Part shown: positions 15,219-20,169 of the stretch, piece by piece | How the letters are laid out: every line of letters begins with the position of its first letter | Numbering within the stretch: the stretch's first letter is position 1 | Assembly: GCA_002257235.1 (NCBI GenBank) | Contig: NCGZ01000002.1 | Coordinates: 56-64,055, forward strand | Length of the DNA stretch: 64,000 bases | Source of the DNA: Alphaproteobacteria bacterium 16-39-46 | GTDB taxonomy: Bacteria; Pseudomonadota; Alphaproteobacteria; 16-39-46 | Reading direction: 5' to 3' | Notes under the pieces: generated by a model | Told to the model about the DNA's origin: nothing | What the model saw: the letters and a program-made list of their open reading frames with translations, nothing else | Database searches by the model: none | Made by a program: the position numbers and the translations under genes

Positions 15219-15824
15219 ATGAAACTGAAAATTACAAAGAAACTGATCATCTACACATCCCTTCTCTTCATCTTAATTCTAATTGCTTTGAGTGGTACCA
15301 TCATGAGCCAAGTCAACGAGCCAAAATATAAAGTGATTTCATCTCAAGAAAAAATTGAGATCAGGGAGTATACTCCCATCCTTCTTGCACAAGTTTCAGT
15401 GGTAGGCGAACGAAAGACGGCCATTTCAGCAGGCTTTAGAATTCTCGCAGATTATATTTTTGGGAATAATGAGGGGCGTCAGAAAATCACCATGACAGCT
15501 CCGGTTATTCAGCAAGAATCTTCAGAAAATCTCCACTGGAATGTCCGATTCGTTATGCCTTCTGAATATACCCTAGAAACTCTGCCTCATCCCAAGAACA
15601 ATCAAATAGACATTATGTCCATTCCCTCAAAGTGTTATGCTGTCATTCGATTTTCAGGGTTAGCAAGGGAGGGCATTTTACAAAGAAATCTAGACCTTCT
15701 ACAACAATACATAAGTTCAAAAAAACTTCATGAGGTTGGCAAGCCTGTTTATGCATTTTACAATCCACCATGGACCCTTCCGTTTCTAAGACGTAATGAG
15801 ATTATGATTGAAATTAGGCGATAA
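15219..15824 (+). CDS. SOUL/HBP-family haem-binding protein
   Basis: 201 aa with a signal anchor. Motifs YEVR-like (KYKVIS..IEIREY), FxxLxxYIxGxN and ITMTAPV match SOUL haem-binding family architecture. Confidence 0.65.
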   Translation: MKLKITKKLIIYTSLLFILILIALSGTIMSQVNEPKYKVISSQEKIEIREYTPILLAQVSVVGERKTAISAGFRILADYIFGNNEGRQKITMTAPVIQQESSENLHWNVRFVMPSEYTLETLPHPKNNQIDIMSIPSKCYAVIRFSGLAREGILQRNLDLLQQYISSKKLHEVGKPVYAFYNPPWTLPFLRRNEIMIEIRR

Positions 15825-15868
15825 AAAACCTCTCAATATGCTAATTATTTATAAAGAAAAATTACACT

Positions 15869-16705
15869 ATGCCAGAACTTCCCGAAGTTGAAACAATCTG
15901 CCAAGCTTTAAAACCGTTGCTTGAAGGACAATCGTTCTTAAAGATTCAAGCTAACCGACCTGATTTACGCTATCCCTTGCCTGTTAATATGGAGACAGTG
16001 CTTAGTCATAAGCTTATTTCGCTTATAAGTCGCCGTGCTAAATATCTTTTGCTTGATTTTAGCCATGGCTTAACTCTCATTTGGCATTTGGGTATGTCAG
16101 GGCGCGTGATTATTGAAAATCTTAATGCTCTCTCCTTAAATTCTGGGCCACATGACCATGTTGTTTTTATAACATCCAATAACTATAAAATTACCTTTCG
16201 CGATCCCCGCCGTTTTGGTTTTTTGTTACTTTACCCCACAAATCAACTCAAGAGCTTACACCCCTTTAAAACACTAGGCCCTGAGCCACTTGGAGACATA
16301 CCTTTAGGTGTTTCAGTGCTTCATGCAGCTTTGAAGCGACGGACTATTTCCATTAAAAATGCCCTTCTTGACCAACGAATTATTGCAGGATTGGGGAATA
16401 TTTACGCCTCTGAGGCTTTATGGCAAGCTCGCCTCTCACCAAGACGCGGGGCTAACACGCTTAGACTGAAAGAAACAAAGATTTTACTTATAGAAATTCA
16501 AAACGTACTAAGACGCGCCATTAGTGCGGGGGGCTCTACTTTGCGAGATTATGCCCAACCAAATGGTGATACTGGGTATTTTCAATACTCTTTTAATGTT
16601 TATAAGCGAGAGCACTTGCTTTGCAATCATTGCCATTTCACTCCTATTACCAGGATTGTTCAAAGTGGTAGAGCTACCTATTATTGCGACAAATGCCAGC
16701 AATAA
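15869..16705 (+). CDS. mutM: Formamidopyrimidine-DNA glycosylase
   Basis: N-terminal MPELPEVE, an H2TH domain and a C-terminal zinc finger (CxxC...CxxC). Confidence 0.9.
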   Translation: MPELPEVETICQALKPLLEGQSFLKIQANRPDLRYPLPVNMETVLSHKLISLISRRAKYLLLDFSHGLTLIWHLGMSGRVIIENLNALSLNSGPHDHVVFITSNNYKITFRDPRRFGFLLLYPTNQLKSLHPFKTLGPEPLGDIPLGVSVLHAALKRRTISIKNALLDQRIIAGLGNIYASEALWQARLSPRRGANTLRLKETKILLIEIQNVLRRAISAGGSTLRDYAQPNGDTGYFQYSFNVYKREHLLCNHCHFTPITRIVQSGRATYYCDKCQQ

Positions 16706-16822
16706 ATTAATTTTTGCTAACTCCAACTCTGCAATACAATCTTCTTAACTGATTTGTCCTTCTTTTTCTTTAACTTCTTCTTTAGAATAAGGACTCAACT
16801 TCAAGAAATCCCTTTTATCAAC

Positions 16823-17676: not shown

Positions 17677-18294
17677 CTACTCGTTGGCATATTGGTTATT
17701 TTGATCGCGGTGATGGGCTTCGTCTCTTCGAACAGCGACAATCAGATCTGCTAATTTTGCATCATGTTCTAAATTCCAATATTTCAAAGCAATGGGCGGT
17801 ACAGGAACATTTTCTATTTTTCCACTTTCCACTTCATTAAGATATTGAGTATAGGAATAAACTGCTTCTTCTTCCATATAACTCACCAAACGATGGGATG
17901 TTCTGGGTGACAAAACATAAAGAAAAAAATAAACAATAAAAAAGATAATTTGAGCAATAACAATTAATGTCCTTTCTATCCAATTTGGGTGAGCAATTTC
18001 AATAAATGTCATCAGATGCATTCGTTCATTCTCAGCCTCCTCCAATAATACTTTAATTCGTCCTCCATCATCTTTAAATAGTCTCAAACTTTTTAAGTGC
18101 TGAAGCATGCCGCCGACCATACCTGGAACGCCGGCGACCGTCTCGAGAACCACAGCTCTGTGACCGTAACGATTCGTAAAGAAGGAATCTGCAAAGAAGC
18201 GTAATATCCTTACAATTCTATAGGCAATGTGATCTGAAAGCGATTTTGGAACATGGTGCACACTAAGATTAATATCAGTTATTTTTTTTGCCAT
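17677..18294 (-). CDS. aox: Alternative oxidase (cyanide-insensitive ubiquinol oxidase, AOX)
   Basis: Di-iron carboxylate motifs [21 protein letters not shown] and RRDEAHHRD are present. The ~205-aa size is typical of bacterial AOX. Confidence 0.8.
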
Positions 18295-18396
18295 TTTTCA
18301 CTCTCTGTTAATTTAAAAATATGCACGCCTAGAGTCCTTTGATTTCATAAAATAGTTTTGCGAGTCAAAGAGAAAACTAAAATTATTATAAAAAAA

Positions 18397-19935
18397 TTAT
18401 AGTATTCCTGCTTTCATTTTTTCCAAGGTAATGGAGGCTTGATTACGAATTGCTTGCTGCTTTTCTATGCCGAATTTATCCCATGTAGAAAATACATATG
18501 ACATGCGCTGGTTGTGTCGAAATTTTACCTCATGACGCACCAGAAAATCCCAGTAAAGTCCGTTAAAAGGGCACGCATTCTTCTCAGTCACCACTTCTGG
18601 ATTATATTGGCAATGCTTACAATAGTCGCTCATTCGATGAATATATTTCCCGCTGGCAGCATAAGGCTTGCTCCCCACGATGCCACCATCCCCATAAAGA
18701 GCCATACCCAGTGTGTTAGGCATTTCTACCCATTCATAAGCATCAGAGTAGACAGCCAAATACCATTCTTGCACAGCTTTGACGTTAATTCCTGCCAGCA
18801 TTGCAAAGTTGCCTGTTATCATAAGCCTTTGAATATGGTGTGAATATGCGTGGTCACGGGTGTGGCGTACGGCTTCAGCAACACAGAACATATTTGTTTT
18901 CGCCCCCCAGTAAAAATCTGGAAGCGGGTTTGTTGCTGCAAGATCGTTCTTTTCTCCATATTCAGGCATATACATCCAATATATGCCACGTACAAATTCA
19001 CGCCACCCCAGAATCTGTCGAATAAAGCCTTCAACAGAATTGAGTGGCGCCTTACCTGAAAGGTATGCGTTTTCCGCGGCCTTACATATCTCCAAAGGGA
19101 GAAGCAAACCTGCATTTAGATACGAAGAAATCAGAGAGTGATACAGATAAGGCTCTCCTGATAGCATGGCATCCTGATAGTGTCCAAAGTCATGTAATAA
19201 TTCATTTATAAAATGATTTAATTCTAGCAATGCCTGGTCGCGAGTGACAGCATAGTGGAACGGCTCTAGGGTCCCAAAATGATCCGTAAATTTGTCTTGG
19301 ACCAATTCCAATACTTCTTCAATTATGGAAGATTTCTTGTGACTGATACGCTTTGGTATCTTCATTCCAGCCTTTGGTGGTTTTCGATTTTCCTTATCAT
19401 AACTCCACTTATCACCGATTGGTTTACTCTCTGATTCCATGAGAATTTTGTATTTCTGACGCATTCTGCGGTAAAAGAATTCCAGGCGCAATTGCACCTT
19501 GTTCTTTGCCCATGAAGCAAATTCTGCCTGTGTGGTCAAGAAACGTGTATCACCTAGAATTTCGACGGGAATACCAAATTCACTTTGCCAGTGCTTCATT
19601 TTTTGCAATATACGGTATTCTCCAGGTTCTGTGACGATAAGATGGGTCGCTTTAACTTGAGCTATGGCGCGTTTTACCTCACCAGCAAAACTGCCGGTAT
19701 TGAGAGGGTCATCTAACTTAACATAACGAATGGAATAGCCTTTACACCTTAATTCATCAGCAAAGTGACGCATAGCTGAGAACAAAAATGCAATTTTCTT
19801 TTTGTGGTGTTTAACGTATGTGAATTCCTCCATAAGTTCGCACAGCATCACAACATCTTCTTCAGCTTTGATTCCTTCAAGTGAAGTAATTGTGTGGGAA
19901 ATTTGGTCGGTTAAAATAAGACGAAGCGCAGACAT
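18397..19935 (-). CDS. phrB: FeS-BCP-type cryptochrome/photolyase (PhrB / CryB-like bacterial (6-4) photolyase)
   Basis: The 512-aa N-terminus (MSALRLILTDQIS) resembles PhrB. A C-terminal four-cysteine cluster (C..C...C....C) matches the [4Fe-4S] site of this family. Confidence 0.75.
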   Translation of the reverse strand: MSALRLILTDQISHTITSLEGIKAEEDVVMLCELMEEFTYVKHHKKKIAFLFSAMRHFADELRCKGYSIRYVKLDDPLNTGSFAGEVKRAIAQVKATHLIVTEPGEYRILQKMKHWQSEFGIPVEILGDTRFLTTQAEFASWAKNKVQLRLEFFYRRMRQKYKILMESESKPIGDKWSYDKENRKPPKAGMKIPKRISHKKSSIIEEVLELVQDKFTDHFGTLEPFHYAVTRDQALLELNHFINELLHDFGHYQDAMLSGEPYLYHSLISSYLNAGLLLPLEICKAAENAYLSGKAPLNSVEGFIRQILGWREFVRGIYWMYMPEYGEKNDLAATNPLPDFYWGAKTNMFCVAEAVRHTRDHAYSHHIQRLMITGNFAMLAGINVKAVQEWYLAVYSDAYEWVEMPNTLGMALYGDGGIVGSKPYAASGKYIHRMSDYCKHCQYNPEVVTEKNACPFNGLYWDFLVRHEVKFRHNQRMSYVFSTWDKFGIEKQQAIRNQASITLEKMKAGIL

Positions 19936-20169
19936 TTACTCTGCCTCAAGTATAATGAGTTTTATTTTTTTGTCGTGTTTTGAGTTTCGGCCAGAAACTC
20001 TTTTGCGCCAAAGTTTGAAACTTCCAGGCTTTAAATTGCTGCGCATAATTTTAATTACTTTGCTTTCGCTGAGGTCACTATCATTTTTGATTTTATCAAA
20101 CGAAATGTCGTCAGCCCACGCCATACTGATAATTTCGCTGATGAACGATGCTCTATGTTCTTTCTTCAC
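19936..20169 (-). CDS. DUF2805 / TIGR03643-family small protein, commonly photolyase-associated
   Basis: 77 aa, immediately downstream of the photolyase with no gap. The sequence resembles the TIGR03643 family that typically neighbours photolyase/cryptochrome genes. Confidence 0.55.
   Translation of the reverse strand: MKKEHRASFISEIISMAWADDISFDKIKNDSDLSESKVIKIMRSNLKPGSFKLWRKRVSGRNSKHDKKIKLIILEAE

Follow-up and report, generated by a model that had tools for sequence, protein, structure and literature searches.

The closest described relatives of the locus analyzed here are bacterial gene clusters and regulons that respond to light and singlet oxygen. The core RpoE-ChrR regulon, represented by RSP_1087-1091, phrB and cfaS in R. 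sphaeroides and by PSPTO_1114-1121 in P. syringae, includes a photolyase, a short-chain dehydrogenase/reductase (SDR), a cyclopropane fatty acid (CFA) synthase and an amine oxidase (PMC5507510). The LitR light regulon of Pseudomonas includes phrB, an SDR, ufaM and cryB (PMC9758184). The SAK1-dependent singlet-oxygen regulon of Chlamydomonas includes SOUL1/2, CFA1/2, GPX5, DUF1365 and DUF2177 (PMC4067076). We have analyzed a stretch of 64,000 nucleotides (the window) from the metagenome-assembled genome (MAG) Alphaproteobacteria bacterium 16-39-46. Six genes of the window form a block, which codes for a SOUL-family protein, the DNA glycosylase Fpg, an SDR, an alternative oxidase (AOX), a PhrB-type photolyase and a DUF2805 protein. 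This block is likely to be a lineage-specific, reduced derivative of a widespread bacterial light/singlet-oxygen cluster, found in an uncultured host-dependent alphaproteobacterium.

The island is not a new kind of gene cluster, but a trimmed and modified form of a known one. The block has in common with the RpoE-ChrR and LitR regulons the photolyase and the SDR, and the common theme is protection from reactive oxygen species (ROS) generated by light. The likeness extends further in some of the loci from other genomes which we have compared with the window (designated by L numbers): L176, L086, L020 and L024 also contain a CFA/UfaM synthase, DUF1365, an FAD amine-oxidase-like protein, a major facilitator superfamily (MFS) protein and DUF3833. 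On the other hand, the block lacks the TGATCC-N16-CGTA promoter, has no rpoE/chrR or litR nearby, and its photolyase belongs to the iron-sulfur bacterial cryptochrome and photolyase (FeS-BCP) class. In the window, the furan-fatty-acid arm has been lost from the cluster, and AOX, Fpg and SOUL are present. Moreover, the SDR adjacent to the photolyase lacks the catalytic tyrosine, and its position suggests that it is probably not of the RSP_1087 type. As for Chlamydomonas, the SOUL, CFA synthase, glutathione peroxidase, DUF1365 and DUF2177 families respond together there, but this is a dispersed eukaryotic regulon rather than a gene cluster, and the relation is by family membership only.

Conservation of the block

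The six open reading frames (ORFs) lie exactly where the initial annotation had placed them, and all have strong family matches. The plus strand contains the genes for the SOUL-family protein (15219-15824, 201 aa; PF04832, E = 6e-46) and for Fpg, or MutM (15869-16705; NF002211, 305 bits versus a cutoff of 212). The minus strand contains those for the SDR (16823-17545, 240 aa; adh_short_C2, E = 2e-48), the AOX (17677-18294, 205 aa; PF01786, E = 9e-82), the PhrB-type photolyase (18397-19935, 512 aa; PF04244, E = 5e-80) and a DUF2805/TIGR03643 protein with a GTG start (19936-20169, 77 aa; 92.8 bits versus a cutoff of 66.55). The genes for DUF2805, PhrB, AOX and SDR follow each other on one strand and converge on SOUL and Fpg.

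The same order and orientation (DUF2805>PhrB>AOX>SDR> <Fpg<SOUL) is found in a sister species, in loci L176 and L177, which come from other metagenomes. Proteins of L176 and the window are 95% (PhrB), 94% (SDR), 91% (AOX), 88% (DUF2805), 86% (Fpg) and 79% (SOUL) identical. When window positions 9000-27000 are compared with L176 by blastn, nucleotide homology (87-92%) is confined to 15206-20246, so the conserved unit is slightly larger than the six ORFs. The flanks are different. On the DUF2805 side, the yefM-dnaJ-dnaK genes of the window bear no relation to those of L176, which code for an old yellow enzyme (OYE), DUF1731, Chalcone_3, a canonical SDR, DUF3833, MFS, CFA synthase, DUF1365 and an amine oxidase; these genes make up the entire classical light/singlet-oxygen cluster, to which the block is physically linked in L176. 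On its SOUL side, the window has a VgrG gene and two orphan paralogues, and L176 has unrelated genes. In locus L084, DUF2805-PhrB-AOX-SDR is found in a third context, in which both Fpg and SOUL are missing.

The gene grouping is a conserved block and not a product of chance, although the degree of conservation differs from gene to gene. The initial annotation had proposed a stress island rather than a random neighborhood. That the neighborhood is not random is borne out by the six genes, which keep their order and orientation in another species with unrelated flanks. The island itself holds largely for DUF2805, PhrB, SDR and SOUL, only within a small clade for AOX, and is weakest for Fpg. A mobile element origin of the block was also considered, and rejected: no direct repeats flank its edges, and no plasmid matches it. 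The nearest transposase is 12 kb away (1768-3504).

The wider distribution of these genes was studied in 80 loci centered on PhrB. They are the best 80 of many more matches in species-representative genomes and are biased toward relatives of the query; the metagenome contigs are short and ORF calling was mechanical. The most frequent PhrB neighbor is the SDR: an orthologue, 53-80% identical, adjoins PhrB in about 27 of the 80 loci, usually immediately upstream and on the same strand. DUF2805 adjoins PhrB in 13/80, and SOUL does so in L005, L025 and L078; in L005 and L078 it lies between the SDR and DUF2805/PhrB. The recurrence of these three families beside PhrB across many lineages agrees with the initial proposal. 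Unbiased clustering of the ORFs located up to 6 kb from PhrB gave a second photolyase/cryptochrome, CFA synthase, DUF1365, an FAD amine-oxidase-like protein, glutathione peroxidase, and also DCC1-like, DUF3429, DUF2237, TspO, OYE and DUF1731 proteins. These families correspond to those described for the RpoE-ChrR core regulon (PMC5507510) and the LitR light regulon of Pseudomonas (PMC9758184). In order to avoid the bias of reaching loci through PhrB, we added a sample centered on the SDR. Among its 10 independent lineages, PhrB is found within 3 kb of the SDR in five and a light-stress cluster in nine; the remaining SDR is isolated.

Ankyrin-repeat proteins are found near the SDR or light-stress genes in L169 (3634-5709 and 13567-14702) and L175 (9391-12279), which suggests that the light-stress cluster has been retained in several apparently host-associated bacteria.

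The proteins of the block

The photolyase aligns over its full length with PhrB of A. tumefaciens (AfPhrB, 4DJA; E = 3.5e-181, residues 1-510), with 52% identity in a pairwise alignment. It also matches CryB of R. sphaeroides (3ZXS, E = 2.8e-157), and its N-terminal domain is PF04244 (E = 4.6e-80). The roles of individual residues, including the chain formed by Trp342, Trp390, Tyr391 and Tyr395, have been defined for PhrB (PMC9178010). These four electron-transfer residues (AfPhrB numbering) are conserved in the window, as is the active-site pair His365/366. The initial annotation had singled out the C-terminal cysteines as the place where its assignment could fail; all four [4Fe-4S] ligands are kept, since Cys350, Cys438, Cys441 and Cys454 of AfPhrB correspond to Cys351, Cys439, Cys442 and Cys455 here. 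The pocket of the 6,7-dimethyl-8-ribityllumazine (DMRL) antenna has 10 of 13 positions identical, including the His43 gate and the Glu37-Arg108 salt bridge. The change of Ile51 to Leu is conservative; the other two positions differ (Gly9 to Thr, Gly42 to Lys). Judging from its sequence, with full-length homology and with all catalytic, Fe-S and electron-transfer residues intact, this protein is a bona fide FeS-BCP of the PhrB type, as the initial annotation had stated. It differs from PhrB and CryB in being encoded in a host-dependent bacterium, with AOX immediately downstream. Its intact residues, together with its position as the best-conserved protein of the block (95%), argue for purifying selection on a light-dependent enzyme.

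Three of the loci (L005, 6596-7905; L007, 3117-4330; L041, 6035-7305) code, downstream of PhrB and of a DCC1-like protein, for a 266-aa protein whose only domain is the FAD_binding_7 photolyase domain. Next comes a protein of 142 aa without a Pfam match, which resembles the N-terminal domain of photolyases. This pair may be a split photolyase/cryptochrome in which the order of the two parts is reversed.

The stop codon of DUF2805 is immediately followed by the ATG of PhrB, and the spacing is also tight in L004, L005, L007, L024, L043, L084 and L176. This arrangement and the score of the family match agree with the claim that DUF2805/TIGR03643 accompanies photolyases. The public annotation starts this gene at an internal ATG (62 aa); we prefer the GTG start, because the homologues almost all have 77 aa. 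The family has a mean column identity of 74% and an invariant basic stretch, SFKLWRKRVSGR-SKH. The structural model is helical (pLDDT 71), a sequence search of the PDB gave nothing below E = 0.77, and the term DUF2805 is absent from the top-ranked literature results. In L170, DUF2805 also partners a photolyase of the cyclobutane pyrimidine dimer (CPD) class. The 123-aa database entry P0188, in which a photolyase N-terminal domain is joined to DUF2805, suggests that fusions of both proteins exist.

The SDR is not a canonical one, because its catalytic Tyr has been replaced by Ile: in alignments with solved SDRs and with E. coli FabG, the YxxxK motif reads I-AAA-K. The Asn of the catalytic tetrad is replaced by Ser, while the Ser and Lys of the tetrad are retained. 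The Gly-rich TGxxxGxG motif reads AASSTMG (family consensus AASSxIG), and N131-H132-E133 is invariant or nearly so in the family. Of the 120 top homologues, 94 have Ile at the position of the catalytic Tyr and the rest have variants of the motif without Tyr, so this residue is missing in essentially all of the closest family members. The family is large, 6,446 proteins at E ≤ 1e-40, and carries generic names only. An AlphaFold2 model of the protein (pLDDT 90.5) superposes on 1ULS with a TM-score of 0.88 and a root-mean-square deviation of 1.7 Å, and FabG-like enzymes give TM-scores of 0.82-0.90. Since this is the classical SDR fold, it gives no clue to the substrate. The likeness to FabG-type classical SDRs comprises the fold, the two retained tetrad residues (Ser and Lys) and, after strand beta2, an Arg that suggests NADP(H) binding; the differences are the Tyr to Ile and Asn to Ser replacements and the AASSxxG motif, shared by essentially all of the 120 closest family members. 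His132 is located seven residues before the Lys. FabI-type enoyl reductases have a Tyr-x6-Lys spacing, although the likeness of His132 is only a lead. These clusters also contain a second SDR next to DUF3833, which it follows; it is canonical, with the Tyr, and about 25% identical, and its position makes it more likely to be the RSP_1087-type protein than the Tyr-less SDR. An uncharacterised family of Tyr-less SDRs is thus recognized as a core companion of light-stress clusters, which is one of the new features of this system.

The other new feature is the presence of AOX within a photolyase gene string, together with an oxidase theme that recurs across unrelated lineages. The AOX has all four di-iron motifs, LET (LET50), NERMH, EEEAVY and DEAHH (PF01786, 274 bits), and matches trypanosomal AOX structures (E about 1e-50). 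By its sequence it is a bacterial alternative oxidase, a non-proton-pumping di-iron ubiquinol oxidase. It resembles other bacterial AOXs, such as those of Novosphingobium aromaticivorans and Vibrio fischeri, in its minimal size (~200 aa) and its four ligand motifs, but differs from them in its location. Linkage to the block is found only in the window, L176, L084 and L020, where the AOX copies of the relatives are 91% (L176 and L084) and 77% (L020) identical to that of the window. In all four it adjoins the Tyr-less SDR; this is still the case in L020, although its gene order has been rearranged. A sample of 80 loci centered on AOX (55-66% identical) included 38 of at least 6 kb, and no photolyase context of this kind appeared in them or in the literature searched, which holds no link between bacterial AOX and photolyase. 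Since none of these 38 loci carries PhrB nearby, AOX appears to be a clade-specific insertion. The initial annotation, which had placed AOX in the island, is right for this small clade; as a general photolyase partner AOX must be rejected.

Nevertheless, another quinol oxidase is found at equivalent positions elsewhere. Cytochrome bd adjoins SDR or PhrB in three unrelated CydA lineages. In L087 the order is CydAB>SDR>PhrB (5341-10269). In L171 it is CydAB>SDR (4456-7699), and in its relative L047, 73% identical, cydAB is divergent from PhrB (7465-11527). In L030, the cytochrome bd genes are beside SDR or PhrB (3773-7786). By a rough estimate, which assumes about 1-2 oxidase operons per roughly 2,500 genes, chance alone should produce well under one adjacency of this kind in our samples. 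In V. cholerae, the respiratory chain is reported to give rise to ROS under blue light, at the level of the quinones, and VCA0809, an FeS-BCP gene, was among the blue-light differentially expressed genes picked for qRT-PCR validation (PMC5241685). These results provide a rationale for the pairing of an overflow oxidase with a photolyase.

The spacer between AOX and SDR (17546-17676) has 131 nt in the window, compared with 28 nt in both L176 and L084. It is therefore possible that the SDR gene has acquired a promoter of its own. The extra DNA contains the 17-nt sequence TTTTTCTTGACGTGTCA, whose sole other exact copy in the window is found in opposite orientation in the yefM promoter region (20738-20754).

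The window SOUL protein has a hydrophobic N-terminal segment for export or anchoring (PF04832, 157 bits versus a cutoff of 27) and a weak match to human HEBP2 structures. SOUL proteins inside PhrB clusters have lipoprotein signals in L005 and L078, and hydrophobic anchors in L030 and L176; such export signals are absent from the two SOUL proteins located near AOX genes elsewhere. In view of these signals, the window SOUL is probably an envelope protein, which would bind a tetrapyrrole or another hydrophobic ligand there.

The fpg gene is intact in the window and starts 44 nt downstream of SOUL, on the same strand. The N-terminal MPELPEVE, the CxxC-x16-CxxC zinc finger and a match to TIGR00577 identify its product, at the sequence level, as an 8-oxoguanine (8-oxoG)/formamidopyrimidine (FaPy) DNA glycosylase. 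Since 8-oxoG is the main DNA lesion caused by singlet oxygen, Fpg fits the theme of the block well, although the evidence for its functional integration is weak. Apart from the window and L176, linkage of Fpg to PhrB is only found in L004, with the order DUF2805>PhrB>Fpg> <SDR, which corresponds to an inversion of the convergent SDR/Fpg pair; its Fpg is 50% identical and its PhrB 80% identical. The L004 SDR is a C-terminal fragment, in a contig at 2x coverage. Fpg linkage is clade-specific, and in this clade Fpg travels with the block. The initial annotation was thus correct as to the presence of Fpg, but its place in the island is confined to a small clade.

Regulation and rival explanations

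If the block is indeed a reduced light/singlet-oxygen cluster, its proteins could act as follows. The photolyase would use blue or UV-A light, FAD, a DMRL-type antenna and its [4Fe-4S] cluster to reverse (6-4) photoproducts. DUF2805, small, basic, helical and probably translationally coupled to PhrB, would be a photolyase accessory or a DNA-binding factor. AOX would drain ubiquinol to O2 without proton pumping, which would keep the quinone pool oxidised and limit light-driven respiratory ROS; we infer this step from the known role of AOX and from the quinone-level ROS of V. cholerae. The Tyr-less SDR would bind NAD(P)H and carry out a non-canonical chemistry alongside oxidase and photolyase, and may be an ene- or quinone-type reductase using His132 at K-7. 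The exported SOUL would sequester photosensitising tetrapyrroles in the envelope. Fpg would remove 8-oxoG, an activity to be expected from its motifs, while its functional tie to the block is weak.

Several results weigh against this explanation. The RpoE/ChrR promoter (TGATCC-N15-18-CGTA) is not found in or near the block, and its three matches elsewhere in the window are at chance level. No regulator gene lies beside the block. The five intergenic regions contain no operator-like palindrome, only one weak AT-rich pair upstream of SOUL, and in the region as a whole matches to sigma-70 promoters and terminators do not exceed those of shuffled controls. Co-transcription of the block genes and their induction by light are only predicted. 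None of the classical furan-fatty-acid arm is encoded in the 64 kb of the window. Neither PhrB nor the Tyr-less SDR is found near AOX in any of the 38 AOX-centered loci of at least 6 kb. In L176 and L177 fpg is a pseudogene (13059-13925): ATA has taken the place of its ATG start codon, and ahead of the zinc finger a TAC codon has mutated to the stop codon TAA; its sequence is identical in two independent samples. Because of this decay, Fpg appears to be dispensable to the block. The fold searches were of little help: that of the SDR yields generic FabG-like enzymes only, with no specific clue, and that of DUF2805 has no significant match, the best one being the Trp repressor (E = 3.3). Finally, the window and L176 are close relatives (87-92% nucleotide identity over the block), so part of the shared order could be due to inheritance and not to selection.

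The RpoE/ChrR motif is not enriched in the loci of the relatives either (9 per 1.29 Mb, versus 5 per 0.64 Mb in controls), and no rpoE-chrR pair is found among the annotated ORFs of the window. Control of the block by such promoters, which the initial annotation had offered as a possible sign of common regulation, has therefore been rejected. Where the SDR and Fpg genes converge, the sequence between them contains no convincing terminator (fold z-score -1.1). The sole conserved non-coding segment is the leader of 77 nt upstream of DUF2805 (20170-20246, minus strand). Alignments with L176, L084 and L004 reveal two conserved boxes in it, TTAAAAAT-R-GAAAA-R-TTTTTGG and TGTTGGTAATGGCTTATTATCT. We consider this leader as a candidate promoter or operator.

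The simplest rival is that the synteny reflects descent only: the window and L176 would have diverged recently, and AOX, Fpg and SOUL would have no functional connection with the photolyase. The 87-92% identity of the block, the 38 AOX loci without PhrB linkage, the fpg pseudogene of L176 and the lack of a shared promoter motif are all in its favor. Homology upstream of SOUL also stops 13 nt before the start codon, so there is no conserved SOUL promoter. This explanation is nevertheless unlikely, because both flanks have been replaced while the block has remained intact. Moreover, L084 keeps DUF2805-PhrB-AOX-SDR in a third context, and L020 keeps AOX beside SDR despite its rearrangement. In L005 and L078, which are distant loci, SOUL has independently come to lie between SDR and PhrB. 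Fpg is kept between PhrB and the convergent SDR in the inverted arrangement of L004, and three unrelated lineages have cytochrome bd at the equivalent position.

The block might also be a general island against oxidative or nitrosative stress imposed by the host, with no response to light. PhrB would then be a bystander or a relic, AOX would provide respiration resistant to NO and ROS inside a protist, and Fpg would repair oxidative lesions. The organism does appear to be host-dependent, as indicated by its TLC translocase, VgrG and orphan effector-like ORFs. The AOX of Vibrio fischeri is an NO-resistant oxidase, and cytochrome bd, found at the equivalent position elsewhere, is also a stress-tolerant oxidase. 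It is difficult to reconcile a bystander or relic with a PhrB whose catalytic, Fe-S and electron-transfer residues are all intact and which is the best-conserved protein of the block (95%). The partners of the block in related genomes are, moreover, specifically light/singlet-oxygen genes (second photolyases, a UfaM-type synthase, TspO), and we find this explanation rather improbable. Alternatively, the main role of the PhrB homologue could be that of a light or redox sensor similar to cryptochromes, a role that has been proposed for CryB of R. sphaeroides; this would turn the block into a signaling module controlling the neighboring redox genes. The close relation to CryB (3ZXS, E = 2.8e-157) fits such a role, no other regulator is encoded beside the block, and DUF2805, which is small, basic and helical in its model, could bind DNA. 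We consider it very unlikely, because His365/366 and the full electron-transfer chain are conserved as in AfPhrB, a proven (6-4) photolyase, the characterised FeS-BCPs repair (6-4) lesions (PMC9178010), and the fold match of DUF2805 to the Trp repressor is not significant. A reduced light/singlet-oxygen cluster is thus the explanation we prefer.

The organism and the significance of the block

Proteins identical to those of the block are shared by the MAG Alphaproteobacteria bacterium 16-39-46 and several other assemblies. In public records, genes of the block bear only the names "oxidase", "SDR family oxidoreductase" and "cryptochrome/photolyase family protein". Holosporales and Ca. Paracaedibacteraceae are among the labels given to close homologues. 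The window encodes a TLC ATP/ADP translocase (4603-6063, E = 6e-137), adjoining a DDE transposase (1768-3504); this translocase is a hallmark of energy parasitism. VgrG (9183-11363, minus strand) and an autotransporter are also encoded. Together with several large orphan ORFs, these genes make it plausible that the organism is host-dependent, in agreement with the intracellular life assumed by the initial annotation. A light-exposed host or habitat, also suggested there, fits the origin of the 80 closest PhrB loci, which are mostly from freshwater MAGs labeled as Rickettsiales, Holosporales, Legionellales or Alphaproteobacteria. Among the top-ranked literature results, we have found no discussion of photolyases in Holosporales endosymbionts.

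Other features of the window may be mentioned. Three very large ORFs have no Pfam match: 28216-32862 (1548 aa), 33158-36307 (1049 aa) and 55281-57383 (700 aa). They are possible host-interaction proteins. Two orphan paralogues of 376 aa (11549-12679) and 668 aa (12720-14726), on the minus strand and with ~28% mutual identity, have signal-like N-termini and no Pfam match. Because they are directly beside the VgrG gene, they may be cargo or effectors of type VI secretion. The yefM antitoxin gene (20429-20686, minus strand) lacks an intact toxin partner; where yoeB would be expected, there is only an ORF of 31 codons, which overlaps the yefM stop codon (ATGA). Two TGTACA hexamers remain in the promoter region of yefM. 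The module, a degenerate toxin-antitoxin system (20337-20760), is about 180 nt from the breakpoint of L176 homology at 20246. An Rfam scan of the window gave one tRNA only.

What does this block mean for such an organism? A bacterium that imports ATP from its host and keeps a light-driven repair enzyme, together with redox helpers, implies that the symbiont, its host or a transmission stage is exposed to light. A bolder idea, which we find quite doubtful, is that the FeS photolyase, a non-pumping quinol oxidase (AOX in the window, cytochrome bd in other lineages) and the Tyr-less SDR form an unrecognized "redox safety valve" module against light stress, kept through genome reduction in host-dependent bacteria of sunlit waters. 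In such a module, the SDR would hand on reducing equivalents derived from NAD(P)H, either to a quinone or to a cofactor of the photolyase, or it would act as an NAD(P)H sensor, and the oxidase would burn these equivalents off. In any case, the presence of an overflow quinol oxidase (AOX or cytochrome bd) beside the photolyase in several unrelated lineages fits the idea that the quinone pool is a main source of light-generated ROS in non-phototrophs. The family of Tyr-less SDRs, large and unnamed, is among those that most regularly accompany photolyase and light-stress clusters in bacteria, and is a clear target for biochemistry.

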